A stretch of 58,831 bases of DNA, the filler included, from Dugesia japonica (taxonomy: Eukaryota): assembly GCA_001938525.1 (NCBI GenBank). It is 5 parts of 5 records of this genome, joined end to end, with 100 filler letters (N's around TTAATTAATTAA, not from the genome) between each part and the next. Parts side by side here need not be neighbours in the genome. Positions count along the whole stretch, not along the records: positions 35,289 to 49,136 come from MQRL01429821.1; 4 more parts are not named here. One strand, 5' to 3'. Position 1 is the stretch's first letter, and each line of letters starts with the position of its first letter. The position numbers and the translations under genes were made by a program. The notes under the pieces are model-generated. The model was not told the DNA's origin, searched no databases, and saw nothing but the letters and a program-made list of their open reading frames with translations. This document shows positions 29,701 to 54,137 of this stretch, piece by piece.

Positions 29701-30720
29701 CCAGAACGAAACATATCTATGGAAGTCAACATGAGACCGACACAATTACAATCATTTGACAAGCTCAGACCAAAGATTTAAAAATACAAAGCTGTTTAGC
29801 AATGTTGGGAGAAGAAAGTTTAAAGCCAAAAAATAGTAAACTAGGAAGCTACTGGAATAAACTGAAGCACGAATTAAAAATAGTGGATGATTTGCTAGTA
29901 GTGGAAAAAGAAAATAAATTTTTGTTAGTGGTTCCGACAAGCATAGTTGTTAAAGTTATAAAGGAAATTCATTAAGATTTATGACATGTGGGAGGAAAAA
30001 GTTATTTCCATACGTACAAGATAGTTTTTTCTGGCCAGGAATGCGCGAGACAATTAATAAAAGTAATGATAAATTTGAGATGTGTGCCAAAAAGAAAGTA
30101 GTACAAAAACTTACAAAAGAAAAACGTATACCGCTGAGAAACCAAATTTTTTTAGAACTAATCCTAGTGGAAATAGCTCATATGGAACAAAGCACGTCTA
30201 AAAAGAAATATGTGGTGGTAATTATTGATCGTTTTAGCAAACCAGTCAGCTAATCTGCAGTTTCAAAAATAGATGAAAAGACGATTTTTATGATAATTTT
30301 GAACAAATGAATATACCGTTTTGGTAAACCAAAATCCATTCTTACTGACAGAGGTAAAGTGTTTGAAAGAAACTAGAAAAATTTGGAATTGTACAGGAGT
30401 TTAATTCAATTCCAGTCAAATGGTTTGATAGAATGGATGATTCAAACAGTGAGCGGCATGATTACGATATCAATAAAAGGTAAATGTAATGAGAAAGATT
30501 GGAAGACATTATAACCGAGAGTAGAATTTAGTATTAATGCTGCAATACACGAGTCAACAAAATTCTCCTTTTGAAATCGTATTTGGTCGAACGATAAATC
30601 TGCATATCAAAGAGGAAACGTTCTCAAAAGAAAGGACAGACAGAGAAAAGATGAATGGATTCAAACGACAAAAGAATTTGCCGCGTTTAATTAAATGGAG
30701 CTACCATTCGCGTTTGATAT
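26768..30720 (+). mobile_element. Decayed Ty3/Gypsy retrotransposon (gag-PR-RT-RH-INT)
   Basis: PBS-like tggcaacc at ~26768, zinc knuckles, LWD*GA protease, YLDD at ~28843, RNase H DDSFGAIGAVL and RTDHKAL, integrase VVIIDRFSK and TDRG. Confidence 0.92.
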
Positions 30721-30729
30721 GTTAATGAG

Positions 30730-33700
30730 ACGAGATGCGAAAGAATTATGGGTGGNAAAATGCAAAGAAGATGTAATTTTGATGAACGAGGTCTGCAAAA
30801 AATGGTTTCGTGAATCATTTGTGATTTAAGAGACACTAGTGGATAAAATAACACTTTTGTCGAAGATTACATAAACCCCAACTGAAAAATATCGTATTTT
30901 GAGTTAAGAGAAAGAAAAATAGTAAATGAAGTTTTTACTAGTAAAAACATTTCAGATGTAATTGCAACAATATTTGTAATTAATGGTGTAAAAAGCGAAA
31001 AACTGAAAGAATCTTTTGTTCTTCAATCAGAACTTACTGATATTTAAAGACGAGAATTAGCTAACAATTTGGATAAATTGATACTGGCGTATACTGTTAA
31101 TGTGGTAAAAAAACAGTTATGCAAATACAGTGAAGAAAGATGAGTATCAGTCAAAGTTTTCAAAAGATTATCCATAAATGAATACTCAAAACGATCCAAG
31201 TACAAGAAGTCAATCAATTGTTTTCCAAGAGAATCAGTATTGCGCAAATGAAATTTAGACCCAAGGACAAGCGCAAAACAATTGTTTTCCTCGATACTCA
31301 ATGAAGTGTATAGCCAATAAGCTATATTGTGAACCAAAGGAAAGAATCTTCCTCACGAAGACGTTTTAGCAACGGTAGCATGTTTCTGCTGTAGAGATAC
31401 AAGACGTAGAAGAATGAATTGTCCATTAAAAGACAAATGTTTAATATGTGGAAAAGAAGGTCATAATTTTCGAGATTGTCNNNNNNNNNNNNNNNNNNNN
31501 NNNNNNNNNNNNNNNNNNNNNNNNNNNNNNAAGATATTATGTATTGCAGGAGAAGATGATATGTTATCTCACAGTGGTGAACAAATGGAGTATTTACACG
31601 ATGTTTCTTTAGATGATGATGATAAAAAACGATCAGCAACCCACTGCATACATCTCCTCAGTGAGGTTGNNNNNNNNNNNNNNNNNNNNNNNNNNNNNNN
31701 NNNNNNNNNNNNNNNNNNNNNNNNNNTTAAGAGAGATGGAAAAGAATGGAATTTGATCCGTTGCAATGAATATGGCATTGAGATGTTGTGGGATTCAGGA
31801 GCAGCAATATCAATCATGAGTGCGGTTGTGTGAAGAAGAATTGGATCATTTGATCTATCGTCGTCACACATTGTTCTAACAGGAGTGTTTTCTGAAAAAG
31901 GAGAAAAATGTATCGGGAAAACTAAACTGAAATTACAATGGAATGGGAAGCTAAGAGAGAAAGAAGTAGTAATTGTTAGAAATATTTATCCAAAATTTAT
32001 CGGAGGTATTGATATCATGAAGCTCTTCGGAATGAAAATCACTGAAGTTGATTTTATTAACTCAGACGATGGAAATCTATTACCAATAATACAGAAAAGG
32101 TGAAAATGACTTTAATACTTCAAATAAATGTCAGCCAAGAAGTAAGAAAAAGGATAGAAACTTACAAAAATTTATTTATGTCATCAAAATTTTATCTTGG
32201 ATATACGAAACTGATGCAACATCACATTGAAATGACAGGACCTTCGATAATGATAAACCCGAAAAGACAGCCAATGCACTTGGAAAATGAAATAGATGAA
32301 TTTTTAGAAAATTTTAGAAAATTAAATATTATAATCAGTTGCAAAAGTCCATGGTATTCCCCATTGGTAATTGTACCAAAGAAAGATGGGACGATACGAA
32401 TGTGTCTTGATTTTAGAAAATTGAATTCAATTACAGAAAAGTATTCGTTTCCAGTTCCAAATATTCAACTATTATTAGATACGCTTGAAAGATCAGTCTT
32501 ATTTTCTTCTTTAGATTTAGGGTAAGCATATTATCAAATTGAACTAAGCAAAGAATCAAAACTAAAGATGGCCTTTAGTAGAAAGATGGGTCAATCTTGT
32601 CTGAATCAAATGCCCTTAGGATTATGTACTGCACCACCAACATTTCAAAGCTTGATACATAAAATATTTGAAGGAATGTTGTACAAAGGAGTATTAGTAT
32701 ATCTAGATGATATTTTAAAACAAAAGAGGAGCACGACAAACGAGTTGGTAAAGTTTTTAGCTACTAAACGATGCGGGTTTAAAAATAAATCCAAGTAAAT
32801 GTGTGTTCAATTCCAAGAAGCCGAAATTTTTAGTACATACAATTAGCGCCAAAGGCATAGAGACAAATGACGAAACTATCAAAGAAATTCAAGAAGTTGT
32901 AACGCTAAAATGCGCCACGAAAATGCGAGCGTTCTTAAGATTAACAAATTATTACACACGTTTCATAAAAGATTATGCTTTACTTGCAGCATCATTGTAT
33001 GCAGCTACGACAGGACAAGAAAAGAACATTGAATGGACAAAATAATGTGAGGATAGTTTTCAATCTTTGAAGATAAAATTGTGTAGTGCTCCGATTTTGA
33101 CTTTCCCAAATAATAGGGGCGAAATGATATCGGATACTGATGCTAGTTTTGAAGCAATTGGAGAGGTTTTGAGTCAAATAACGTATAATGGATTGGAACA
33201 GGTCAAAGCATATGGTTCTTGAACTTTAAAAAATCACGAAAACGGATATTGCGTTACTCGCAAGGAATTATTAGATCTACATGAGTTTATGGTGTATTTT
33301 AAACACTATTTGTATGGCAAGAAATTTAGAGCAAGAACGGACCATAAAGCATTGACTTTTATGACGAAGAGTAGTAAGCCCATTATTTCTCAGTTTCAAA
33401 CATGGATAACAAATCTAGTAGAATTTAATTTTGAACTAGAATTCCGAAAAAGAGCAGCTCATAGAAATGCTGATGGACTTTCAAGGATAGGACAGAGTCT
33501 TGGTTCGCGATGTCAGACTATGCATCAAGATGCCAAAGGGGAACGATCTCGAGTTAAAAGAATCAACACTTTAGACAAAACAAACTTTGATAGAAGTACA
33601 GAGAAATGATCCAATAACTGGAGAAATCATTGAATATATTGAAAGTGGAATGATAAATAATAAGCTCAGAACAATGGTGACCAAAAGTAAATATTTTACC

Positions 33701-33965
33701 AAACTGGAAAAGTTTGAGTTGGATGATGAGATACTGATTATCAATGAAGAAGACAAGAAAAGAATTGTACTGGCAGAAAAATCGACAAATGACCTTATTT
33801 ATTGTATACACGATGCGTTATGTCATGTGGGAGGCCAAAAACTGACGGAGTATTTGAGTATAAGTTATTTTTGGCCAAATATGCAAAGAAATGTAGAACA
33901 TCAACTAAAAAAATGCATAATATGCTACATGCGTAAAACATACACTGGGCGAACAAAGGAAAAAG
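30730..33965 (+). mobile_element. Second decayed Ty3/Gypsy element of a related family, truncated in integrase
   Basis: CLICGKEGHNFRDC knuckle, LWDSGA, SPWYSPLVIVPKKDGTIRMCLDFRKLN, YLDD, DTDASFEAIG and HDALCHVG..C..C. Cut at ~33970 by hAT sequence. Confidence 0.92.
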
Positions 33966-33974
33966 TATTATTTA

Positions 33975-35141
33975 ACTTTCGCACCCCAATTAAATAAATA
34001 TTATTTTATGGCATGTGATTTATGGTAAAAAATAGTAAATAGGTTAAAAAGTTGTAAATCAAACAAAATTATTAAAAATGTTATTAAACATAAAATGAAA
34101 TCATATTTATTCACTTTGTTATTCTTGTTTTTGTTTTATTAATTTTTCGAATATTGGAAGTTTTTCGCTAATTGCAGTTCGCAGATCTGATTTTGGATTC
34201 AAGCAATTTCTATGCTTGGTTTTTATTGATAGAAGGGAATTAAATCCAGATTCGCACAAGTAAGTTGTGCCAAATGGAATAAGAAGAGATAGTGATTTCT
34301 TCCCCATCTTTGGGTACAAATTTCCTAAGTCTTCTCAAAATTGTTTAAAAATACGATGATTTAAAGAACATCCTCTTATCCAGTTGATAACCTTGACACA
34401 AGTATCAAGTGTTTTCTTTAATCAGTGCAAAGGGAACCAATAACTCTGATATGCAAATCATGACTAGCAAATAAATTCTCAGTCTCTGTTTTTTATCTTT
34501 TGCTGTCGTACTAGTTTTCAAAACAGGAAATCTTCAATAATTTTATTAATTTTGACGTATCTAATCATAGTCATAAATTGACTACAATTAGTGATATCGG
34601 TAGATTTATCCAATTAAAGGAATATTTTTACAGGACTATCTTTGATGTCGGAGATGACTTGATCTAAAATTTCACTACTCAATTCACAGATTCTTTTTTT
34701 GAATGATATTGTTTCATAAAAGAACTTGCTCAAGTTTTTTAGCTTCTATGCCGACAATAATTGTTGCCATTTCAAGAATGCATGGTTTTATTAAAGTTTT
34801 TCCAATTATATACGACTTCGTGTTTTTCGCTATCATATAAGCGACTTTACATGAAGCCAATAGTAATGGTTTGTCAACAGAAACATAACACAATTTTAGA
34901 AGAGTTCCCAAAGAATCAAAACTAGTTTTTTGCTCTTCAATGAATCAATATCCTGTTCTCTATTTTCAGAACCGCCATGTTTGCTCTTAAAAGGTTCTTT
35001 TAGTTTTAATGATTTTAAATTTGAATTAAAAAATTTGGCACTACAAATAATACATTGAGACCTTTGTATATTATCATTATTTGTTGTGCAAGTGAAACCA
35101 AACTGCACATACTCCTCATTCCACTTCCTTCTTTTTGACAT
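33975..35141 (-). mobile_element. Internally deleted hAT Buster/Charlie (ZBED5-like) transposon
   Basis: MSKRRKWNEEYVQFGFT..QCIIC, SCKVAYMIAK..IGKTLIKPC, QLDKSTDITNCSQ, and the dimerisation motif LIPFGTTYLCESGF. Confidence 0.9.
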
Positions 35142-35650
35142 AATAAACTAAAATTTAAATATTAAATTAAGTAAAATTAAATTTAATANNNNNNNNNNNN
35201 NNNNNNNNNNNNNNNNNNNNNNNNNNNNNNNNTTAATTAATTAANNNNNNNNNNNNNNNNNNNNNNNNNNNNNNNNNNNNNNNNNNNNTAATAAAGAAAT
35301 TTATAAAAAATAATATTTATAGCATAAATTATATGTATAAAAAACACAAAACAAAATAAAAATTTTTAAAAATTTTCAGAAAAGTACAAAACAAAATGGA
35401 CATTTTTGAAAATTTTCAAAAAAATACAAAAAATCAAAATTAAAAAATGCTAAGTATAATATATCTATAATATCTAAAAAAGTTTTCTGTAATAATCAAA
35501 AAAAAAATTTTTTGAAAATTTTTTGAGTTGATTTAAAAATAAAAAATTAAAATCATTAAATTTTAAAAAAATAAATCAATTAAATTTTGATAAAATTTAA
35601 AGAATTTAGTAACAAAGATCTATTGCACTGAATATCTCAAGAAGCCAACA

Positions 35651-35686
35651 TGTTCCTGAAGAAGACTATTGTCGAAAATTTGAACT
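35651..35686 (+). ncRNA. Minimal hammerhead ribozyme-like motif (family 1 arm)
   Basis: gttc-CTGAAGA-a-gac tatt gtc-GAAA-attt-gaac, with perfect helix II and a 4-bp helix I. Confidence 0.55.
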
Positions 35687-36574
35687 TTTTTTGCAAATAA
35701 ATTTTTTTTGATCGAAGCTTTATCTTATTTTAATGAAAAATATTGGCAAAATAAAAATGGGATAAATAGTAACCTTTCCTCTAAAAAAGAATTAATTGTT
35801 TGTTCTATACATCAAGACTAATAAAAAGTAATCGTTAAAGCATTCTTAAATTTTCAGACAGTTTATTTATCTTACAAATTTTTCCCTTTGTTGGATTTTT
35901 CAATATTTGTAAAGCCATCTCAAATGAATTATGAACAATTTGATGAATGTAAAACACTTTTTTAAATGGTTTTGATAGAATAAACCTGGAAACGAATTCT
36001 AGTACAAAATTATTCACTGGTTAATCCAAGACCTACTGTTTAGAAAAGCACGTGGTTTCATTATTGAGAATAATCGACAATATATTCAATAATTTATAGC
36101 TATTCAAAACTTATATCATCTTTGAAGGCGACAATATGATTATAATTAATAACTATAAGACATTATGAAATTTTTCAATTAAAATTATTGAGAGAATAAT
36201 TGTTGGACTTAAACACTGATCAAATTTTAGATTTCATTAAATTAAAAGTTTTGATCAAAATGTTGTTTCATTTCTTTTTGGTTCTTTTTGTTANTTATTC
36301 GAATATTATTAATGTTTGACATGATACATTTGATTTCGACAAATATGAAGATCCTTTAAAAATTGTTATTCTTTTCAATTTAATTTATAGAATTTAGCGT
36401 AATTCTCATTGCAATTTAAAAAAAAATATTTTAATAAAGATGAGTAAATACATTTCATTTCAGAAATTAAAATTTTAAAATTTTCATTTCAAAATTTATT
36501 TTCTAAAAATTAACTTTCGATTGATCTGTAAATTAAACGAATATTTTGAAATTTGTTTTTCAAAATATTTGTAT

Positions 36575-37016
36575 AAATACTTTCCTGTCTCCTCTGAAAT
36601 AACTTACAATTTTTAGAAGATTGTCTCTAAAATCTTGAATATCGAAAGAATTTAATTCTTTGTTTAAATTGAAATATCGTGGAAAATAAATTTCATTAAA
36701 AATATTTTGTCGGAAAGTAGAAATATTTTCATCTTCATGTTTTATATCATCTATCAAATATATTATCAATGAAAAGTTCAACAAACAATAGACCTCTTAT
36801 TGTGTTCTTGATTATTTCTAAATTTTCATTAATCATTTCGATAATCGAATTTGTAAGATTTTCGTATTTTATTTCAGATTCTGGTAGAGTTAAACATTGA
36901 ATAATTAACAGTTCAAAAACGTTTTTAATTATTTGAGAAATAATTTTATTAAATTTTTCTTTAAATCCTTCAATATTATCCAACTCGGATGTAATGTGTT
37001 TTGCTATATCCGATCT
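36575..37016 (-). pseudogene. Exon of an unknown helical protein with one frameshift
   Basis: Acceptor tttcag at ~37016, overlapping ORFs 36747-36983 and 36560-36784, and donor gtattt. No recognised family. Confidence 0.35.
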
Positions 37017-37949
37017 GAAATGAAAATTAAAACAAAATTAAACATAACTATAAAACACATTCAATTTAATTTTTTTTATTTCTATAATTAACATTTTTAA
37101 TTGTTTTTTTTAATTTTTGTTAATTCTCTTTCAAAGGTTTATTCTTCCTGTTTCTTGAGCAAATTTCCTAAGTAATGTTGTAACGTTTTTTTTATACTAG
37201 AAACGACTTGGTTAGTTAAACAAAAACCAACAATTAAATTCGTAATAGATGCAAAGTCGATTTTCAATTTTAGTTTGGTATACACTGGTTTCAATCTACA
37301 AGGTAACGCGAAATTTGAAAGCATTCTTTTTTATGAAAATTCAAAATCAGATGTCTATTTTCCAATTCATCGACTATACAGACTTTCCAATTTGCTGAAA
37401 AGATAGTGGCAGTAAACCTCTGCACACATTCAGTAATGTAACGAAACTTAATCCTAATGCATTTAGTTGGGAAATTACAAATGACATCATATTTGGTAAT
37501 ATTATGTCAGAGATGTTGTTTTTTCTCTGTGTATTTAGTTAGGAAATGTTTTGTAAATGTTTTGTAATGTAAATTATTTCATGAGATTAATTTAATCGAT
37601 GAAATTTTATGTAATATGATTAAGAAAGACTATGTTTTCTAATGATTTTATTTGACAAAATTTTTTTGCACACAAATTGTGTAATTTTTAATCGTGTTTT
37701 GAAAAGTTTGGCTAATTATTTTTAAATTTAGGCTTTTAGTTAAGAAAATTTTTCAGGCTTTTGAAGCAGCAATATTTTTTCAAGCTTTTTAATTGGGAAA
37801 AAATTTTATTGGGAATTTCTTATATGAATCCTGTCTACCGTTCATGTTATTTAAATAATATGAAAATTTAAAAAATTTGTATATAAAATTTTTATACGAA
37901 TCTGGCTAATCAGTCTAAAATTTTGAAAATATATATTCGTCATCTCAGA

Positions 37950-39420
37950 TTTAAAAGATTTCTTTACCAAACGGATACCAATGTAGAGCTGGTGTTTCTG
38001 CTTCCAATTTAGCTACTGATAAAATGTCATCAAAGGTTCTCTATCGTGGCAATTTCTAAATTACTGACTGGCTTTTCTTAAATCAAGTTAAGACTAACAT
38101 TCTTCCAGTTAATTGAAGTCCGCATAATACTAAGAATGAAAAAAACTGCGAGAAATTTAGATATGATATTGAGTCACAACATTACGTGCTTGAATTGTGT
38201 CCGGCTAATATGCATTTTATCCTTAATAGACATAACGCAGCACTTAATCTTCTCTTTGCAATCGCAGGATACAAGTCGCTGTTGAAAAAGTTTTAAGGAC
38301 AAACACTGTGTCCTTTTAAACTCTATGATGCGAGTAGATCTACAAATCGAGATAAAAAAACGCCAAGAACTTCGACTATAAGATTTCAAAGCCCCCTGTG
38401 ACAATTTAAAAAATGTGGAAGAATGTCACCAAGCTAATATTTCAAAGTATAAAATACTTAATGATGGAAAATTGTTCTTGACACATTTACGGTCGAATGC
38501 CTCGGCTCTAGGAAAGCGAAAAATGATGATATCCTGAAAAGTCTGAAATTTATGAAATCAAAGATTGGCCAACTGAAAAGTAACATGATAATTTCAAATA
38601 TCGAATGGAGCCACCTAACATGGAATGTACATAACACTAGGAGTATTGTGAGTGGTGCTCCCTCTTACATGGAGCTGATTTATATTAATCAAAAACTTAC
38701 AGCGGAAAACCTCAATAGAATTTATCCTCATTTAAAGCTAATTGACGATAAAAAGATTTCGATAGATTGGGATCGCATGGAATCAGAAATGTATAAAGTT
38801 CTTTCTAATTGTACAAATCCAACAATTAATAAGTCAGCTACAGATTTCAAATCAACAGACGATATTTATTCAACAATTGATATCTAAAAACGGAGCTTTT
38901 GATTTGTGATTTTTGTGGAACACTGTAGTTGAAAGCAGAAGAAGTGCACTTGTACTTGTAATTATTTGGTGGTATTTTAAATATCTTTGTCCTCTAAATC
39001 ATAAAGTCATCTCTGATGTTGATCATTTTGAAACAAACTTTACTAAATGGATATTTTTGGACTTGATTATCCCGATTGTAAATGATAATTGGTTTATTGA
39101 ATCATAAATCGGAACAAAATTTGGAAATTTTCATTATGAATCTTTTTGAATTCGTAGATAATTTTCTTAACGACCAAAATGATTTAAAGGAAAGTCATGA
39201 ATGCTCGCAAATGTTTCCCGAGATCATCAAAAATGGGATATGTAAATATCATTTCAAGTTTGGCTCACAAGTGCGACAATGGATGTAAATGGAAATCTAT
39301 TTAAGTAGAAAAATACAACTTGTTGATATGCATAAATCATTTAAAATTTGGAGCAAAATTCAGAAAGTGCTATTCGAAATGCCAAATTTATGCTCGTATC
39401 GATTGTGAGAATGATGAGAT
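37950..39420 (+). mobile_element. 3' fragment of an RLE non-LTR retrotransposon (NeSL/Utopia-like) with a C-terminal extension
   Basis: DWLFLNQVKTNILPVN, decayed CCHC CEKFRYDIESQHYVLELC..RHN, RLE RVDL..DFKAP..KY and SHLTWNVH, then ~250 further codons. Confidence 0.82.
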
Positions 39421-39935
39421 ATAAAATAAGGTTTTTAAGATTTTCTAAATTACTAATTTCTTTCAATAACACTCATTATTATTTAGCAAGACGTTTGTAA
39501 ATATTTTGAAGCAATTTTTTGTTAGTAGCTATAAAAATAAGAGTAATGTAAACATCTTTATCTATTTCTATAAATGTTTCCACAGTGTTTCTGTTAATAA
39601 TCATTCCAAATTTTGTAAAATAATTGAATAATACTAAACCAAATCACATTTACAAAACGATACAAGTACTTAAATAATTAGTAACAAAAAAGTATTTCGA
39701 CCAATAAAATTCTGTGAAACTTTTTCAACAAATTTCTTTTTGAAATCAAAATGCAAAATTTCTAGATCACTTTACCCGCGGCAGAGGGATGATCCAGTGC
39801 TGACGTGTCCAACTACTTTCTGATATTGATTTTATAAAGTATTTTTTTTGTAGTCAGATAAATTTTTAAGAGTGCATTTCAGATAAACAACATTTTAATT
39901 AAAAAGATAATAATTAACAATTATTCATTAATTAC

Positions 39936-41327
39936 GTTTTATATTTCATTTGAGAAACACGATTTCGACATTGATCAATACTTAATGCCACCATAGATTT
40001 TAGATTTTTTAAATATTTATAATTCTTTGTAAACAAACTTTCAGACATTTTCTCCTAGAAAACATTAATAAATAAAATATTAATAAATTATAACACTTGT
40101 AAATAATTAAGAAAACATTGAAAGGATTTGTTACGTTCATCCCATTTAGATTCAGAATTTGCTAAAATTAATTTAAATTGTTAAACAAAATCAAAGAAGA
40201 ACAAAGATTCACGCGCAATAAAGCCTGTAAGAATTCTTATTCGTTCAGATGCTGATAAAAAAAATATGGACGAATCAGCCTCAGCATCAGTAAGTTGCAG
40301 CATATTACAAAGAATATTTTTAGCATTGGTATTACATTGCTCTTGTAATGAAATATNNNNNNNNNNNNNNNNNNNNNNNNNNNNNNNNNNNNAAACAATA
40401 ATTACATTTAATTTTGTATATCTAGTTCTGAAATCTTTGAAAAATTGTTCATCCTATCAACATATAAATTAGTTATGATAAATTTTATGTTACCAATGTA
40501 GTTATGCCGCTTTGTGCATTGACAACTAGTACAACTACATCAGCATCTTTGAAATATTCCTCCATTGAATTTTCATTTATAAATGTAGAATTAATTCCTG
40601 GAGCATCAATTATAACAATGTTATCTTTTAATAGTTCACATGTGTTTTTATCATAATACATGGTTATTAGAGAACCATTTTTCAAATGATTTGTTGATTT
40701 AATATTATTTAATTCTTTCAATTCTTCAATGCTCCTTGTCTAAAAATAAAATACATTTATAATTAATTACTGATTTATATTTACGATAAAAAATTAAACT
40801 TTAATTAATTTTGTTTTAATTTGATAACATTTAATTAAAATTATTTTATTTGAACTTTTATTCTTTAAAAAGATCGAAAATAAGAATGAATGATAAGAAA
40901 TATTTATAATAAATAAACCTAACCACAAAATCACTGGTTAATAATTATAGATTAATAATTATAGTTTTATACAAGTAATTATTAAAATATTTAAAAATAA
41001 ATTCACTTCTTTAGATCATTTTTTAGATAATTTGAATTATGTTCGTGAAAATTGTAAATTTAATAATGAATTATAATTAATGAAATATTGTTAAGTATAA
41101 TAAAGCAATTTAATTAATAAATAATTAAATTGTCTAAAATTTATCATTTCTATTGATAATAATCAATCAAATATTACAAACAAACCTCATTGTTTACAAC
41201 AAGATAATTTTCATTGGTCGGACTAGCTGTAATTTCAACAAAACAATTTGATGTTGATCCGAAATCTGTTGCTAAAATTTCTTTAGCTATTAGAGCATTT
41301 ATCAATGTTGATTTTCCAGAGGATACA
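39936..41327 (-). CDS. MFN: Mitofusin/Fzo-like dynamin GTPase exons (partial, possibly pseudogene)
   Basis: In-frame GT-AG exons 41186-41327 (VSSGKSTLINALIAKEILATDFGSTSNCF), 40494-40739 (CELLKDNIVIIDAPG..DADVVVLVVNA), and from 40453 (DEQFFK..), then IFFLSASE. These are colinear with the mitofusin GTPase domain. Confidence 0.82.
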
Positions 41328-43699
41328 CTGAATATAGAATTGTTATAAATAAATCAATTATTGGAAAATAAAACTTCATAAATGTTTACAAATATCCAAG
41401 GATTAAGTTTCTTTTTTAAAAATTGTATACCATGTTTATTTGTTATTATTCTTTTAGTCTTTATAATTAGTGGACATGTAAATATAGTATGTACAAGTTT
41501 CTTTAAAAATTATTGAACAATTCTAATTTAATAAAAACTAATATAGGATAGAATTTAATATAATTTCCAAATTAAATGAAAGTAAGTCTAAATTTAATAA
41601 ACAGTTTTATACATAAAAACAGTTGTTATACATAAGAAAATAAGTCAATTTTTACAAATAATAGAAAAAAATTTAATTTAATATTATATTTTAATTAAAG
41701 TTTACAATTATTATTATTAGTGTTATTAGGTAAAAAGTGGCGCGCTGAATCCCTTGATCTTCCTCCTCTCGAGGATGAAGTGATCTAGAAATTTTTTTTG
41801 GTCGACACGCATACGCGTGTATGTATGTAGAATATCAATCGAGCGATGAGACATTTATTGTCTGTTGCTGTAAGTATTTGGTTGGTTATTTATCTTAAAT
41901 TTATCTCAAACTGTTGTAATGGAAGAATTTAGTAATTTACAATTTTTAATAAAGAGATAAAATAATTTAAAACAATATAAAGTTATATATTTTCGATATT
42001 TAAAATAAAATATTATACTTAAAAATTAGTAAAAGATATATTCAAATTAATACAGTCTTGTAAATAAGCATATTTGCATCTCTCGGATCAATTCCAAAAA
42101 AAAACCAATAAAATTCTGATAAACATTGGTATAAGAAGAGACAGAGTAAATAAACTAATAAAAAATATGCCCTTTTCAACATATTAGACTGGACTAAAAT
42201 TTGGTATTTTTACAAAAATGATGCTCTACCTTGTTGTCAATAATGTAAAATATTAAATTTAATGAAGAATAAAAGTGTAGAAAGAAATTTGTTAGGGTGA
42301 AACACCCCAGTAAAGAGAGAAAAAGAAAAACAGACTAAAAGCAATAAGAAGAAAAAAGGAGGAAAAATACAATGAGGCCCTCAACAAATAGGCGATCAAC
42401 AAATTAATAATAAATTTAATTTGAAATGGAAAGAAAATGATTACAAATAATTAATTAAGAATATTGAAGAAGAAATTAGAAGAAATATGGAAAATAAGAA
42501 GAAAATAAATGATATCATTTAAATCAATATTTTGACTGTAACTTATACATTATTATATGGTTCCGTTATTGAAAATATAAGTTTCAACATTAGAAAATAA
42601 TGGTTCATCGTTGAAAGTACTAGCTTTATCATAGAAAAGTAATGGAATTATTAAAAATAAAAGTTTATCATAGAAAATACTTAATAGAACAAATATATTC
42701 ACTAATTATATTACATTTATTTTATACATGGTCATTGAATTTGTTTAATTAATTTGTTTAATTTAATTTTTTTAATTTGTAGTTTTATTCTTTTCTTATC
42801 TATTTTATACCATGTTGCTATGTTTTTAGTCATTTTTCATCATTTACCCTCATTTTCCTTATTTCCCACTATTTAGCCGTATTTAGCTATAATCATCTTA
42901 TTTAGCTATATTTTCTCTATTTTTTCCATCATTTTACGTTATTTACCCTTTTTAGCTACATTTATCTATATTTTAGTATAATTTCTACTGGGTCTTAATA
43001 TTTAATGAGTAATATTTAAAGATAAAATGATACATTAATACTGAATGATGGTGAGTAAGAGCTGATATGGCATGCTTCTTATTTAAAATAATATAATCAT
43101 TTCAGTCTATTTTAATCAATTGATTATTCTTCTGCTTCTTTGCTTGCTCATTAGCAATCCTGTTTGCTCTTTAGTTTCTTCGGCTTTATTTTCTTTTAAC
43201 TAGCTAATTATCAGTTACATTGTTAGTAAATAAGAGTTCAACATAGAAAATACTTGATGCATCATTAGTTATACTTGATTCGTCATTAAAAATTTTGATC
43301 TCAACATTAAAAATATAGGTTTAGTTCAAAATACTTGTTAAAAGGCAAATATGGGTTTTAACAAGAACATAATGGTTTCAATATAAAAATAATGGTCTTA
43401 TCATTGAATAATACCACTAAACTAGATATATGCAATAAACCAATTGTTGTAAGTAGGCTCCATTACATTAGCATTTATTAATATTTTCAACACTTAAACC
43501 AATATATTGACAAACAAGTAATACCTATTTTTATTATTATTATTTATTTATTCACCCATTCTACTTAAATTTTGTATTCACTTATCTTAACCAATTCTTA
43601 CAAGTAAATCAATACAACCATGTCATCTATAAATCCCTAAGTAAAAGTCACTATTTTTATTAAAAAAAAACACTAAGTAGATGTTTACTATGGTTAACA

Positions 43700-46600
43700 T
43701 TATTCTATAGTCTACCATCATAATCTATTTGATCTTACAACCAATGATACAGTAAATCCATTTATTTATTAAGACAACAATTTTGTCAAGACAGAGACAC
43801 AAAGTTAATCCATTAATCAAAGACACAGCAAAGCTAATGGATAGTGTAAACATATGTGATACAGCAAAAACCAATGTGTTACAAAAGAAAAACAATGTGA
43901 TACAGTAAACCAATGAACACTACACATTACATGATAGTTAGTATTCTATCACAGTACCTGAATGAATCAATTTGTTAAAGTAAATTATTTGACTTATTAC
44001 TAATTTATTAGTATAACATCCAAATTGTTACTATATATGCCCAATTTGTAGACACCTATGTATGAATTGTAACTACTTATGTATAAAGTGTAGCATGATA
44101 TATGCAAATTATAATCACCTATTGATTTTATAGAGATCATCAAAAGAAAAATATTAAAGTTAATTGTTGGGAAACATCACATAGAAACATCAAACAAATA
44201 ACTCATGCATATAAACAAACCCATACAAATTAGTGGCAATCCAGCAACTCCGGCTGCTCAGATGAGAAAACTGATGAACCTAACAATTCAGAACAACCTG
44301 ATCAATCCAAATGTATATTATTTGACTTCTCGTATCAATCAAAGCAATCTGACTTTTTATTATTCTATTTGACTTTTCGTATCAATCTGACTTTTATTAT
44401 TATTCATTTATTTTTGTACAAATCTTAATTTTATTTTTATGTACAAATCTTATTGTGGCAATATTATGTAATAATTACAACTTTACAATTTTTATGATAA
44501 TTTTACTTTATGTAACAATTCTATTTCAATAATTTCATTATTTCAACATAACTATTACTATATATCCTGTTTATTTTATTAGTATTATCAATTTTGTGGA
44601 AATACAAATTATTGATTAATAAATAAATATTATTACTTTAGTTAAATTATTACTTTTTTTAATAAGCTTTATTTGGTATACAATAGACCAAAACTAAATA
44701 AGCAACAAAAGTTTAGGTTTGTATAGATGTAAGAATTTTATTGGGTAATGGAAGTATAACATAAATGTTATCTGATTGGTTGAATCTTTATATAAAAATA
44801 TTGTTAATTTGAATATATTTTTACTATCATTTATTTTGGCTAATAAGACGTATAATGCAGAACGGTGCACAATTATTTCAAAGGTATTTTCTTTATTTTT
44901 CATTTATTTTCAAATAGTTTTACTTTTTATTAAATTAAGCATGAACAATGAATAAGCAGGGGAAGAATTCGTAAGGGAAATAATGACACAATCTTTAGGG
45001 AAATTATAATAAATAGGTTTTTAATTGTATTAATTTAGAAATTTAAAAATACATCTGATAATATAGAAAGAATAAACGAATGTCACAGTAGCGAAGGAAA
45101 AGAAGGAATTTAAAAAAATATTTGAAAATTTGGATGAAATTAGTGACAATTCTCCAACTCGTTTTAAAATACGCCGATTATCAAACGTAGCAAGTCAAAA
45201 GCGACTTGAAGAGAATGAACATTATATGTTGAAAAATGGACCGGTAACTCAAGAATTTAATGATGAAATAAATCAAAGATATAGAAATTTTTGATTTCAG
45301 TTATCAACAAATCATTTTATCTGTGATTACAAAGATATTATGAAAATATTTCATCAAAAAACTAAATTTTTTATTGGACAAGAAGAATTATGTCCTAATG
45401 GAAACAACGTAATGNAATGTTTTATTACGTTTCTAAACAATATAACCTGTCAATCTGTAAAGAGATTATTAAAAGTGACATCTGTAAAAATTATATATAT
45501 TTTTATTTAAATTGTAAAGAGTACTAAAATTATTATTAATAGGTATTAAATATAGTGATGTTACCGTAGAAATGAAGAGATGTAACAATGTAAATAAAGC
45601 AGTTACTAGTGGTATTAAGATAAAATACGGTTATCGCAAAAATTTGGAGGATGAAGCATTCTGGATTAGATTTTTGGAAAGTGGCACAATTGAAGAAGGT
45701 CAGGAGATGGTCGAATAGGAACGTCCACTTGAATATATCAGAATGCAATCTAAATTGCACTCCATTCTGAACATGAAAATTGGAAACCCTAAAATACCTC
45801 AATTCAACAAAAATTGGAAGATATATCTTTTCAATTGACAAGATCAGCGCACCAAAGTGTTCATAGGAGGCACAGGTAATAATTAATTACTAAATAATTA
45901 TTGTAAAATAATAATGATTTATTTTGGCTAAACAAATTTCGCTCTAAGTCATTTTGAAAATCCGATTCATGTTACGATTCGGCAAGATTTCAAAAAGATG
46001 GGCACAAATAGATATCAAAATGGTGGATGTGTTATTGATTATTTAATACTACACATGTAGGCACGCGAATAAATAATAAATTTAACAGATACCTCTTGTG
46101 CAACTTCAATAAATATGAAGTATGGTACAGGTACTATTCCAGCAAATACTAGAAATATATTTTGTTGCAATACAATTGAAGATTTTATTAATGAAAAATG
46201 GAACAAAGGAAGAGAACGTGCAATACGTCGACGATGTCACTTTTATTTATTCGGTTCTGGACCACTTTTTAAAGACGAACAATTAAGAGAAGCAACGATG
46301 AAACCTATAGTATCTAAATTTAATGATAAAATGGATGAATATTTACCACAAGACTTTGAATGAAGCTATATATGAGAACGTATAATGTCCCTCTTTAGGA
46401 CCACAAATAATGATTGATAGTTGTATTGAATTATTATTATTGTACTAATTTAATATATTTATTTTTAGTCTGCAAATGTTATCTAGCCAAAATGTGATCA
46501 ACAAAAAGATGTGATTTATCAATAAATTTTGTAAATTAAAATTGTGTTTATTTTGTTATATGTCACGTTTTGTTATTTTATAATGGAAATAGTATTTAAG

Positions 46601-48466
46601 CTTTCAAATTTGACTTAAGTTTGTATTTTTGTTTAAATTTAAGCTTTTCTAATAATTATTGAAAAATTTTCTACTTATTTATAATGTTTATCAATAGTTT
46701 TCAATTATATCAATAAAATAGGAAATGAATTTCGATTATAAGTAAAAATTACTTTAAAATTTTATTATACAAGTAATAATATTTCAATGTAAATTGTACT
46801 ATTTTAAATTTGAAATGTCAGTGTTTACTGTTGTCAATAATAATATTTTAATAATTATTAGTTTTTTTAATTTTTATCAATTTAAAATAATCATGATTTT
46901 TGTTTACAGTGTAAAGACTACTGTTTTATAATATAAAGCCTACTATTTTNAATTTTATATAGTCAATTATATTAAAATAATATATAAAGTCTATAATTTA
47001 ATGTGTTAATTGGGTTTTGAAAACTCATCGAATCATTAAAAATCAGAATTCAAATTCATTACAACGATTTATTAATATAAAAAACTATAACAACACTAAT
47101 TGAGCTTTTAAACAAATTAAATTCCTGTTTTAAATTGGTTATCGTTTCTTAAGATTTTTTTAAAATTTATTTAAAGTTATTTGATTTTATATAAAGATTT
47201 TTAAAATAAATTTTCTTTTTAATTTCAAAATTTAAAACAATTACTTATTCGTTATTTAATTTTTCATTTCAATTTAAATCTTTTTCAAAAAATATTTTAA
47301 GAAAAACGATCACCAACCACACAAAAATTTCAATTCGCTCAAAACATACTCACATACTGTAAAATTATAATGTTAATTGTATTAATTTAGATTTCGCTGT
47401 ATCAACAGTAAAAATTTGAAATTTTAACGATTTTTCTTTTTTAAAGAATCTTTAAGAATTAATATAAAAAAATTCAAAATACATTAAAAAAGCTACTCAT
47501 AAAATGTACTGTAGAAATAATGAGTTCAAGTTAAGAATGAAATTAAAAAATTTAATAAATTATATAATTATACTTAAACAATGAAAATCATTTCTAAAGT
47601 TTCTATTGACATTTTTACAAAAGGAAGCATTTTTCATTATAAGTACTTTAAGTAATGTATAGATAGTTTTCATTCTGGTTTTATTAGTGTAAAAATAATA
47701 TGATGAAATTACGATTAAAAATATAATGAATGATATATTGTTTCGAGAACCACGCATTTTCTTCAGTAAACCATATGTGAAATATGTTCAGATTTTAATT
47801 CTTAGTTGAATTGTTTAAAAATATTTTAAAAATTATTATTTTAATTATAATTTATAATTAATTTTATAATTATATTATTTCTTGAACTAAGCATTTTTAT
47901 ACTTCAAACCCTGCATGAAATGAGTTCAGTATTTTATTCTGAGTTCAAAGATACTAAATTTGTTTGTTTATCTAAATTATTTACGGATTAAATAATTTAT
48001 TATATTCAAGGTGGGGCCATTTTCTATCTTTTGAACCAAGCATATTTATACAACAAACCCTATACAACAAATGTTCAGAATTTTATTCTAAATCAAATCC
48101 TATCATTTTCAGAGCTATACAATAAGTTTTAACTGAGAAATTTGAAAAACCAGTCAAATTGTTTTTCCTGTTTTGCACTACTTTTGCCCAGAGAACCAAA
48201 AATATGCAAAAAAGGATCACATTTCAATTCTAAGACGGTCAATACAAAATTCGAATTAATATGATAAAATTTGACCGAAAAATTTAAAAACAAATTTTCG
48301 ATATTCGGCCTTCCCAAGCAAATTTTCGACCGATCCAACCCGATTTCTAAAACATTTTTCATGTATTCGTAACGTTCAATCAAAATTCTACTTTTCAAAA
48401 ACACCAAATCAGTCAAATTGTCAAAAACAGTCAGCGACGGGGGCTACTGTTCCCGTGCTACACTAT
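43700..48466 (+). mobile_element. Rep-encoding repeat element (candidate rolling-circle transposon or endogenous CRESS virus); left boundary uncertain
   Basis: Minisatellite, decayed Rep gene, ~140-bp-spaced subterminal repeats (47765, 47905, 48055) and a terminal hairpin at 48433-48459 followed by acactat. A homologous copy lies at 16123-17459. Confidence 0.6.
44941..46363 (+). pseudogene. CRESS-type Rep (HUH endonuclease + SF3 helicase), decayed, apparently intron-containing
   Basis: RYRNF*FQL (motif I), FIGQEELCPNGNNVMxCFITF (motif II region), Walker A VFIGGTG..G*TNFALSHFENP, Walker B-like GCVIDY, INMKYGTGTIPANTRNIFCCN (motif C) and AIRRR (Arg finger). Confidence 0.8.
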
Positions 48467-49289
48467 CTATCTATCTACTAATCATTGAGTCTCCTAAAAC
48501 CATTGAGTATCGAAAACGCAATAGAATACTCAGAAAACCATTTAATAATCTACACCTTATAGTCAAAAAATAAAAACATACAACAGTATTTTGATTTTAT
48601 TAACAATCAAATTGATTACTCGGTATTTAGATAAAAGAAGGTAGATGAGTAGAAGGAAGAGGAGCAAGCGGTGGGGTCGACAGATGATTATGAACGATGT
48701 ATATTTTCTGGTAAGGGATACATGGCAACTCTAATGATAAACTAGTACTTTATTGTTTTAAATTTTGAAACTCATTTTCTCTAACGAGGCTATACAATAT
48801 GTATAAGTTATAGTCAAAAAAATTGACTTTACTGACTGATAGTTAGGTATTTAAAAGAAAATAAACCCATACACAAACAAAGTGCACGCAAGGAACCGAG
48901 GAGCAAGAAGGGATGCAAACATATGATGATAAATGATATACTGTGTTAGTTAAAGATTAGGAATTTTAGGAATTATTTCTTGGCTTATTTTATGAAAAAT
49001 TATATGGTAACACTTTTTTCTGAGGTCGTCTCGTTTCAAAGATATACACATTTAAAGATTTGAAAAACACAAACAATTTCAATACGCATAATATAGAATT
49101 GCATGCAAAGAAAAAATCAAAAAAGATCATTTGAAANNNNNNNNNNNNNNNNNNNNNNNNNNNNNNNNNNNNNNNNNNNNTTAATTAATTAANNNNNNNN
49201 NNNNNNNNNNNNNNNNNNNNNNNNNNNNNNNNNNNNTGTATTTATTTCTCTTTTATATTTAATAGTAATATTCGATTGACTATTATTCT

Positions 49290-49552
49290 TTTCATTAAAA
49301 TAAGATAAGAATTCGATCAAAACAAAATTTATTTGTAAAAAAGTTCAAATTTTCGACAATTTTGTTTGTCGAAAATTTGAACTTTTTTACAAATAAATTT
49401 TGTTTTGATCGAAGCCTTATCTTATTTTAATGAAATCTNNNNNNNNNNNNNNNNNNNNNNNNNNNNNNNNNNNNNNNNNNNNNNNNNNTAATGAAATCTC
49501 AAATCCGATCAATGGTTAAGTCCAACAATTATTCTCACAATAATTGTAATTA
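49290..49552. repeat. Near-perfect hairpin formed by two family-1 arms joined at hammerhead helix II
   Basis: ttcattaaaataagataag..aagttcaaattttcgacaa|ttttgt|ttgtcgaaaatttgaactt..cttatcttattttaatgaa, then the family terminus after the gap. Confidence 0.85.
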
Positions 49553-52625: not shown

Positions 52626-54137
52626 TTAATTGTCGTTTTGGATAATTTTTTGAAGATTTTTCATTATGGTTTCATTCACTTGAAATTGCACCAAACGTTG
52701 GCGTATTTCATAAATTGGAAATTCACCAATTGAAATAACTGGGAAATATTGATATTTTTCTTTAATCATTTCATTTATCGGTGCTAATTCTTCTAAATTT
52801 TTAAAATTCCATATTTTATTTTGACATAATCTATTTAGTTTAATAAACGAATTAATTAAGTCACAATAATCTTTATAAATTATTTTCATGTTATCAGGAA
52901 GAATTCCAAAATTTCTTTTACAAAGTTTAAAAACTGTGAGAATGTTATCAATTTGATAACTTTCAATTTCATTTAAATAAAATTGATTATGAAAGGATAT
53001 TTGGGATAATTGATGAGACTTATTTAAGAAATTATCTTCGATGAATAATTTTTTTTTCAAAATAATTTCTATAAGTTTGCCAATAATATTTTCAAATTTC
53101 AATTTCAATATTTTCCCAATTAAATCTATATTAGAGTTACTATTAACATTTCCATCAAAATGACAAATGATGTTTGNTAATTCAAACATCTCGTTACATT
53201 TTTTACAATATTTTTGACATTTATCGATTATTTGGAAATCGTTTTCCGTAATAATAGTATTACAAATAAAGCATTGATCAATAGAATTTGCAAATAAATC
53301 AATTAATTCAACATCAATTTCTGTTCTCGATATTTTAGATACTAATAATTTGGTTAATTTTATAAAATCGAGAATAATAACATAAGATTGCTCAATTATA
53401 TCAAGTCTCTCATAGCTGATTTTACCGAAATTTTTTTCAAATTTCTTTGGTTTAAATTCATCAAAAATTATTTCTAATTTTTGATATTTCAGTTTTAGTC
53501 TCACCATAGCATTAAAACATGATTCTAAATAACTGAGATCATTTTTATATCGAAAAAGCAATTGGTCGCCTCTAAATTTATTGCGAACAATTGATTTGAA
53601 TTTTTTAAAAAACATATTGAAATCCATAAATTCAGTAGGCGAAATTGGAAAATCTTTAAGCATTTCTTCAAAATCTAATCGCGGAAATTCCAAAATATTT
53701 TTATTATAATTTTTTAGAAGTTCATTTGATTTCTTATTCAAAGAACTTTGAAATAATTCTTTTCCATAAAGTATTTTAATTCTTGAGAAATAATCAATAG
53801 TTCGTTTGATTGGTTTTTCAAATTCTATCAATTTCTTTAATAATTTGATAATTTCTTTTAACTTTAATTCAATTATTGAATCGCATTTATTAACATAAAG
53901 TTTATGAATAACAGTAGTGATCGGTGTAGTGACATATTTATTTTCATTATCATCAAATATGGTAATACTGATTATTTCTCGGCGATCGAAAGGACATTTA
54001 GCATTTTTATTTGTAATTTCATTTAAACAATCCAAACAAATTTGATGATTACATGGCAAAAGTTTGACTTGATATTTGAAATCAAAAAATGAATAACAAA
54101 CAAAACATTCGCTATTTTCATTATTTTCATGTATCAT
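52626..54137 (-). CDS. 503-aa intronless RING-finger protein (putative E3 ligase) with a second degenerate RING
   Basis: CFVC..LLPCNHQICLDC..KCPFDR (C3HC3D RING) at the N-terminus, and CFIC..CQKYCKKC..ICHFD near aa 290. Open ATG to TAA frame. Confidence 0.85.
   Translation of the reverse strand: MIHENNENSECFVCYSFFDFKYQVKLLPCNHQICLDCLNEITNKNAKCPFDRREIISITIFDDNENKYVTTPITTVIHKLYVNKCDSIIELKLKEIIKLLKKLIEFEKPIKRTIDYFSRIKILYGKELFQSSLNKKSNELLKNYNKNILEFPRLDFEEMLKDFPISPTEFMDFNMFFKKFKSIVRNKFRGDQLLFRYKNDLSYLESCFNAMVRLKLKYQKLEIIFDEFKPKKFEKNFGKISYERLDIIEQSYVIILDFIKLTKLLVSKISRTEIDVELIDLFANSIDQCFICNTIITENDFQIIDKCQKYCKKCNEMFELXNIICHFDGNVNSNSNIDLIGKILKLKFENIIGKLIEIILKKKLFIEDNFLNKSHQLSQISFHNQFYLNEIESYQIDNILTVFKLCKRNFGILPDNMKIIYKDYCDLINSFIKLNRLCQNKIWNFKNLEELAPINEMIKEKYQYFPVISIGEFPIYEIRQRLVQFQVNETIMKNLQKIIQNDN

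Follow-up and report, generated by a model that had tools for sequence, protein, structure and literature searches.

The described elements nearest to the locus analysed here, a decayed replication initiator (Rep) gene inside an abundant repeat of the planarian Dugesia japonica, are PEVE and PIVE, both discussed as single-stranded DNA (ssDNA)-virus-like transposable elements (Liu 2011, PMC3198968). PEVE is reported there as not found integrated; its 5.7-kb segment (locus L012) has 243-bp inverted termini, a capsid-like open reading frame (ORF) and a Rep with intact motifs. PIVE is an integrated repeat of Schmidtea mediterranea (Repbase 2008), whose PIVE_3p protein groups with the Reps of the PEVE large segments and which also encodes PIVE_1p, a protein resembling parvovirus NS1; we compared PIVE by its description only. 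The window, that is, the whole stretch of 58,831 nucleotides analysed, consists of short AT-rich scaffolds joined with N spacers. The Rep locus, copy A of the repeat, lies on the scaffold at 35289-49136, and a copy B is found at the end of the scaffold at 1-17459, on the minus strand. Here we report that the Rep of the window falls in the same clade as PEVE (support 100/99). On its two sides are the 5' blocks and the 3' blocks belonging to a multi-copy family, a placement that the sequence-only reading of this DNA had proposed and that block alignment and contig depth confirmed. Compared with PEVE, the window has the Rep as its sole matching part, carries extra intron-like inserts, has lost nuclease residues and is placed in a hairpin-ended repeat.

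Helitrons have a 3' signature consisting of a hairpin followed by CTAG and then T (PMC4778049, PMC4289320), and they pick up foreign genes, viral sequence included (PMC6431247, PMC4289320); here and throughout, published descriptions are taken from excerpts of the papers cited. Non-autonomous Helitrons of the Helitron1 or Helraiser type and the Dugesia family are alike in having a subterminal hairpin, CTAG followed by T (in copy B), high abundance and internal cargo, but in the latter the cargo is a Rep of the type known from CRESS DNA viruses (single-stranded, circular and Rep-encoding), the end is perhaps CTAC then T, and RepHel was not seen in the scaffolds scanned. The window also differs from an autonomous Helitron, since its Rep helicase belongs to superfamily 3 (SF3) and not to superfamily 1 (SF1)/Pif1. 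Replitrons (PMC10288648) are eukaryotic, encode a Y1 Rep related to CRESS Reps and possess a right-end hairpin; as described there, they have no helicase and carry short terminal direct repeats, whereas the window Rep has SF3. [quoted passage not shown] Captured Reps with dead nuclease motifs and better kept helicase motifs are known as apvRep in avipoxviruses and U94 in human herpesvirus 6 (HHV-6) (PMC10193959); these belong to large DNA viruses, where they are either expressed or subject to selection, whereas the window Rep is a nuclear pseudogene. The excerpts of PMC11410931 and bioRxiv 551184 contained no data on planarian Helitron ends. The locus had been put forward as a new element. As to the Rep lineage this does not stand, an integrated repeat with a PEVE-type Rep being already in print (PIVE) and the lineage known before; as to the combination of an HUH nuclease and SF3 helicase with a Helitron-type end, no such transposon was found in the literature, with Repbase reports and most subscription journals lying outside the search.

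Three-frame translation of 44941-46363 gave Rep-like pieces broken by stops and frame changes, and on sequence grounds the gene is a CRESS-type, virus-related Rep with an HUH nuclease fused to an SF3 helicase. The earlier assignment of a decayed CRESS-type Rep to this segment is borne out by tblastx against three metagenome loci from one sample (L001-L003; 3/339 pattern matches confirmed in a metagenome scan), in which the nuclease and helicase parts were both covered (E 4e-46, 2e-45 and 2e-32), and by an hhalign match of the N-terminal piece to a profile made from four intact relatives (probability 95, E 2e-8). Of the full SF3 motif set claimed, motifs A, B, C and the Arg finger can be aligned to relatives, but Walker A is split by a 50-bp insert and a stop, and Walker B is altered. 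The integrity of the HUH and YxxK motifs, for which a check had been proposed, is lost in the window copy: motif II is without its histidine, and motif III without its tyrosine and lysine. PEVE and L001-L003 retain the motif II histidine and YxxK, the third motif II residue of L001-L003 being E. Rep motifs II and III are needed for nicking (PMC6668415). A second copy, P0019, is 81% identical to the window Rep and likewise lacks the motif II histidine, motif II and not motif III being visible in it; because both copies lack this residue, loss of the nuclease residues likely predates their split. Searches of the window Rep pieces against Pfam gave no relevant match, PDB sequence searches nothing useful, and Rfam no match.

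The sequence-only reading had overlooked intron-like inserts in the Rep. We infer that the two or three AT-rich inserts are introns. P0019 and P0015 (81% and 80% identical to the window, both on one 1,758-bp contig record) read into window inserts 2 and 3, and P0013 and P0015 begin or end at the Walker A insert site, P0013 beginning there, which suggests an intron site common to these relatives. L001-L003 hold short GT..AG segments at positions other than those of the window inserts. In PEVE too the Rep motifs are split across frames, as if spliced. RNA data were uninformative: no joint at the intron-like inserts was among those listed for run X19 (1,242 reads, 93% of which ran on into unlike sequence; uninformative on splicing and expression), and run X22 placed 7 reads on 48290-48590, which says nothing of expression.

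A search with the helicase part found 3 proteins among 27 candidates, two of them annotated as Gemini_AL1 Reps, and a profile of the Rep family picked out 21 of 3,946 candidate proteins. Among named proteins, the one nearest to this profile was the PEVE Rep (E 1e-71), which is 35% identical to the window piece and 44% identical to L001. The phylogeny that had been called for, a 33-row tree with midpoint root only, in which five rows have less than half of the columns filled and PEVE is the sole named CRESS family, placed the window Rep as virus-related within a 12-row PEVE-like group (100/99), on a long stem branch of 0.48. Within it the window Rep, P0013, P0014, P0015, P0017 and L001-L003 grouped apart from PEVE (88/91, not starred). 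An open L001 exon was nearest to Cressdnaviricota Rep clusters (0.97), and a model of the PEVE Rep matched CRESS Reps in BFVD (E 1e-11). Pfam gave sub-threshold Viral_Rep and Gemini hints on the relatives. A four-row fold of the PEVE Rep (predicted local distance difference test, pLDDT, 55) matched nothing in the PDB at E<=0.001; the Rep ATPase of porcine circovirus 2 (PCV2) came nearest, at E 0.011. A single-sequence fold (pLDDT 30) was unusable.

Upstream of its Rep, on the opposite strand, PEVE has an ORF that resembles ssDNA-virus capsids (0.95, a language-model search lead); with this ORF and its inverted termini, PEVE implies that the lineage includes viruses. The ORF (L012 207-1040, minus strand) is nearest to smacovirus and densovirus capsids, and its combination with a CRESS-type Rep and inverted termini is an unusual hybrid layout. 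Unnamed close relatives of the PEVE Rep in public assemblies (P0011, P0027, P0029 and P0030, contigs of 1.4-2.6 kb) are probably further PEVE-like viruses. No capsid gene was found on the Rep scaffold, in agreement with the earlier reading, either by tblastx with PEVE or by a six-frame Pfam scan of 35289-49136, a scan of limited sensitivity that also missed PEVE's own capsid-like ORF; Pfam likewise gave no NS1-like protein of the PIVE_1p type on this scaffold. Scans of viral loci for Rep relatives gave 0/14 for P0003, 0/10 for P0006 and 0 pattern matches for P0011, a viral scan with A5 recovered PEVE alone (1/37), and a scan of prokaryote genomes gave 0/169. One of the three intron-bearing metagenome Reps sits within a non-LTR (long terminal repeat) retrotransposon remnant (Ulp1 protease E 7e-5, zf-RVT E 3e-3), with three 109-bp repeats after it. 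This retrotransposon, at L001 1-1720 and 3650-4596, apparently lacks its reverse transcriptase core at the Rep segment, and the 5' part of that Rep segment is itself apparently truncated. As candidate origins, 42000-49200 holds seven matches to NANTATTAC, each of them in AT-rich sequence and without an evident GC stem around it; such nonamer-like matches are expected in AT-rich DNA and were dismissed. No circle junction was present among the contig and read joints listed.

The repeat family is defined by four blocks that are colinear between copies A and B (43831-43913, 43905-43997, 48033-48075 and 48442-48479). All four had been claimed and all four withstood testing, none of 100 shuffles scoring as high in any case; three other pairs of regions were not convincingly above shuffles (4, 11 and 24 of 100). 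Copy A has no defined left limit, the minisatellite being its leftmost shared block, and copy B, which is cut by the scaffold end, has its 5' blocks separated from its 3' blocks by an assembly gap of 61 Ns (16525-16585). Abundance was judged by depth summed over the public contigs of three runs from three studies, a measure that does not equal copy number and was used for contrast between regions only. Depth was 44-469 in the seven bins over the Rep (44264-46167), 1,105-2,717 over the 5' blocks (43720-44263) and 4,497-62,948 over 46984-48343, while the own contigs of the Rep locus had depths of 7-19; the contrast between Rep and ends spans one to three orders of magnitude. Thus the Rep exists in few copies and the repeat ends are far more abundant. 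Variant letters were present in 6-9 contigs per run at two helicase sites and in 1-4 at N-terminal sites. Diverged pieces of about 90% identity, on separate contigs, cover 44809-45100, 45262-45642, 46169-46527 and 46575-47004, and therefore the Rep was duplicated together with its 3' spacer. No public contig bridges the Rep and the terminus.

Just 3' of the Rep stop lies an abundant motif of about 45 bp (46370-46416; depth 12,000-19,000 at 46388-46389) that is also embedded in unrelated RNA reads. A 10-bp direct repeat flanking the Rep was dismissed as expected in AT-rich DNA. A very abundant family (depth up to 2-3e5) brackets the element, its members at 42521-43500 and 48490-48870 being inverted relative to each other (76% over 88 bp, 88% over 34 bp), and its left copy looks truncated, with 70-86 contigs per run extending left of 42521. 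We consider this inverted pair unlikely to be TIRs, as it is asymmetric and has no match beyond the end of copy B.

At the right end, hairpins had been described in both copies, and folding agreed (z -2.7, 3/200 shuffles; z -1.9, 10/200). The end of copy B is the best non-self match to the end of copy A in the 58.8-kb window. A compensatory stem change, also claimed, has as its basis two sequences whose loops differ by a 3-nt indel. Over 48400-48432 depth is 1,641-4,521; it drops to 89-132 over 48466-48476, and from 48488 onwards another family raises it again. Here 8-11 contigs per run carry on past 48432 with a variable GC-rich hairpin, and two contigs diverge from the reference at 48473, one with 382 unlike letters. 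The depth drop and contig exits therefore set the family boundary at about 48466-48479. The CACTA(G) terminus proposed earlier may not be the end: copy B does show CTAG followed by T (16126-16122), but the alignment of both copies runs on to a shared ATCTAC followed by T (48478; 16112), about 11 nt further, and the integrase match that adjoins copy B stops at 16108. By this alignment the true end may lie 11 nt beyond CACTA(G). The truncated Gypsy integrase next to copy B, another feature of the earlier reading, was recovered by Pfam, below its cut-off. CTRR occurs within 16 nt of the hairpin in 4 of the 20 GC hairpins of the window, and 101 bp inside copy B there is a second, degenerate terminal motif. 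No GC hairpin was found in L001 2900-3760 or in the 3' part of PEVE, and the 3' region of the window was not convincingly closer than shuffles to that of PEVE or L001 (2 and 24 of 60). A match of L001 to the inner edge of the PEVE inverted terminal repeat scored above 60/60 shuffles; it was driven by TA runs and is not relied on. Among inverted pairs in 43400-48500 the longest was 40 nt and AT-rich, with no long inverted termini. No DDE, RepHel or Pif1 match was found on the Rep scaffold and no RepHel on the scaffold of copy B, two stretches being scanned.

Table 1. Coordinates in the window of the Rep gene, the repeat family around it (copy A) and the Rep-less copy B
Feature	Position	Strand	Remarks
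Minisatellite, units of about 18-21 bp, common to A and B	43740..43915	+	0/100 shuffles; depth 1,423-2,717 (bin 43720-43991)
Second 5' block, shared with B 16680-16586	43905..43997	+	E 1e-6; 0/100 shuffles
Rep gene of the PEVE lineage, decayed (HUH nuclease, oligomerisation region, SF3 helicase)	44941..46363	+	Interrupted by stops and frame changes; start position approximate
AT-rich intron-like segment 1, GC 0.12	45000..45040	+	Weakest of the three; no homolog alignment spans the segment
Nuclease motif I and II region; motif II without metal-binding histidine	45277..45477	+	Homolog alignments, hhalign
AT-rich intron-like insert 2, GC 0.09, with GT at its start, separating motif II from motif III	45484..45541	+	Not in intact relatives; limits approximate
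Motif III region without catalytic Tyr and Lys, then oligomerisation region and the front half of Walker A	45542..45875	+	
AT-rich intron-like insert 3, GC 0.08, begins GT, within Walker A	45876..45925	+	Not in PEVE or L001-L003
Remainder of SF3 helicase: Walker B, motif C, Arg finger, stop	45926..46363	+	
Spacer 3' of Rep, with a duplicate in at least one diverged copy (about 90%)	46364..47004	+	Contig records
High-copy 3' region, including 47734-48275 with 3-4 degenerate tandem units of 140-150 bp; shares block 48033-48075 with B	46984..48432	+	
GC-rich subterminal hairpin, variable among family members	48433..48459	+	Loose ends at 48432 in 11, 8 and 11 contigs
Family right end, exact end between 48466 and 48478	48460..48479	+	Depth minimum; two contigs leave at 48473
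Copy B, without Rep	16112..17459	-	Minisatellite 17400-16670, block 16680-16586, N gap 16525-16585
3' part of copy B		-	Inner terminal-motif copy 16221-16237, block 16209-16167, hairpin 16147-16129, CTAG 16126-16123, possible end 16112
Truncated Gypsy integrase zinc-binding segment, cut by the end of copy B	16004..16108	+	Integrase_H2C2, E 3e-4, below Pfam cut-off

The reading that we favour, with an even chance of being correct, is that a virus-derived, nuclease-dead Rep is carried as cargo by a non-autonomous Helitron-like element. A PEVE-like virus would have integrated or been captured, so that its Rep became a genome resident; the resident Rep would have carried or gained introns and lost its nicking ability, its nuclease function presumably gone before the visible copies split. 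Whole-unit transposition as cargo could then have given rise to the few Rep copies, with the element moved in trans by a conventional RepHel transposase putatively encoded elsewhere. The Rep is likely a passenger and not the engine because the window copy lacks the DNA-cutting residues, and the low depth of the Rep relative to the ends and the lack of this terminus in relatives with intact motifs also support a cargo role. If true, the locus is a viral fossil riding in a Helitron-like repeat, through which the little-studied PEVE/PIVE lineage gains genomic copies that are rich in introns and nuclease-dead, as well as further hosts, a result of modest interest. Several observations weigh against a cargo role. 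The two scaffold stretches scanned had no RepHel or Pif1 gene; the end, if CTAC followed by T, departs from canonical CTRR; at least one diverged copy (on separate contigs) has both Rep and spacer up to the high-copy edge, as an autonomous element would; and a low ratio of Rep to ends is equally normal for autonomous versus non-autonomous copies. Moreover, the intron-bearing Reps of L001-L003 keep the motif II histidine and motif III tyrosine, and one of them lies within a retrotransposon remnant, features that hint at a genomic mobile lifestyle of the lineage.

It is possible, and in our judgement unlikely, that the capsid-less, intron-bearing PEVE-lineage HUH and SF3 Rep is itself the transposase, now or once, of this family, the visible copies being dead descendants of an intact master; such a Rep would nick the ends, unwind with its own SF3 helicase and mobilise non-autonomous copies such as B. 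The sequence-only reading had taken this position, with a virus-derived Rep running the family, and it was not demonstrated, given the absent nuclease residues and a terminus not found in relatives with intact motifs. In its favour, the blocks on both sides of the Rep recur in the same order in the Rep-less copy B, depth is similar for the 5' blocks and for the last 30 bp before the hairpin (1,641-4,521), and the 3' spacer is present in a diverged Rep copy. The separation from PEVE of the window Rep, P0013/14/15/17 and L001-L003, the GT..AG segments of L001-L003 next to their preserved histidine and tyrosine, the intron site apparently shared by P0013 and P0015, and the scaffold without a capsid, DDE or RepHel match point the same way. 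However, the motif II histidine is missing in both of the close copies in which that site is visible, the terminus is not conserved in L001 or PEVE, and the upstream DNA of L001-L003 is too short to exclude a capsid, which in PEVE is encoded upstream of the Rep. The capsid-coding PEVE also seems to be spliced, and introns are therefore no mark of a transposon. In addition, a hairpin with CTAG and then T is the ordinary look of a non-autonomous Helitron (PMC4778049, PMC4289320). We hold it doubtful that, in a branch of PEVE, loss of the capsid and acquisition of spliceosomal introns gave a third eukaryotic rolling-circle transposon group driven by a CRESS HUH and SF3 Rep, and only tentatively would we extend such a group to several hosts (Dugesia japonica, the host of L001-L003 and the sources of P0013, P0014 and P0017) with hundreds of non-autonomous copies with Helitron-like ends here. 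Were the Rep the driver, it would represent a direct virus-to-transposon transition by a helicase-bearing CRESS Rep, would close the gap that separates Replitrons, without a helicase, from Helitrons, with an SF1 helicase, and would make testable the old question of CRESS Reps as eukaryotic transposases.

We consider it improbable that the locus is a chance composite, in which an old PEVE-like insertion lies in, or was later surrounded by, unrelated abundant repeats, with the paralogs arising by segmental duplication. The region is indeed a mosaic of families of very unequal depth, with another abundant family on both flanks in opposite orientation (42515-42601 versus 48835-48752, 76%), an assembly gap between the 5' and 3' parts of copy B, and a Rep and terminus that no contig joins; but two loci of the window carry both sets of blocks with identical order and orientation, which is best explained by one family. 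Least probable of all is that a nuclease-dead, helicase-keeping Rep was once used by the host or the element (e.g. as a dominant-negative antiviral factor or accessory helicase) and became the present pseudogene: the lost nuclease residues and well-aligned helicase motifs along the long stem branch, introns that would suggest nuclear expression, and the precedent of apvRep and U94 (PMC10193959) speak for it, but when the window is compared with P0019, conservation is about equal for the intron-like insert and for the coding part beside it, so that there is no sign of selection since their split, and no intact syntenic ortholog was seen.

Among the other features of the window, a spliced host gene of the dynamin superfamily, possibly mitofusin-like, lies at about 40200-41400 on the minus strand, about 1 kb from the repeat cluster, with Dynamin_N matches in two frames (E 2e-6 and 1e-5). 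A single ORF of 503 amino acids at 52626-54137 (minus strand) has an N-terminal RING finger (PF13920, E 5e-8). Positions 27000-34500 (plus strand) hold a pair of decayed, Gypsy-like pol regions that resemble each other at 64% over 1.2 kb, with an RT_RNaseH match, and an integrase core match at about 3770-4000 (plus strand; rve, E 4e-7, below cut-off) amid decayed ORFs could, as a guess, be a Polinton-like remnant. Palindromic repeats resembling miniature inverted-repeat transposable elements occur at 8735-8970, 19275-19811, 49290-49435 and 35569-35739, with several related copies in the window. Finally, a 295-bp duplicate (21105-21399 and 21450-21744, 99.7%) flanking a 50-N gap is probably an assembly artefact.

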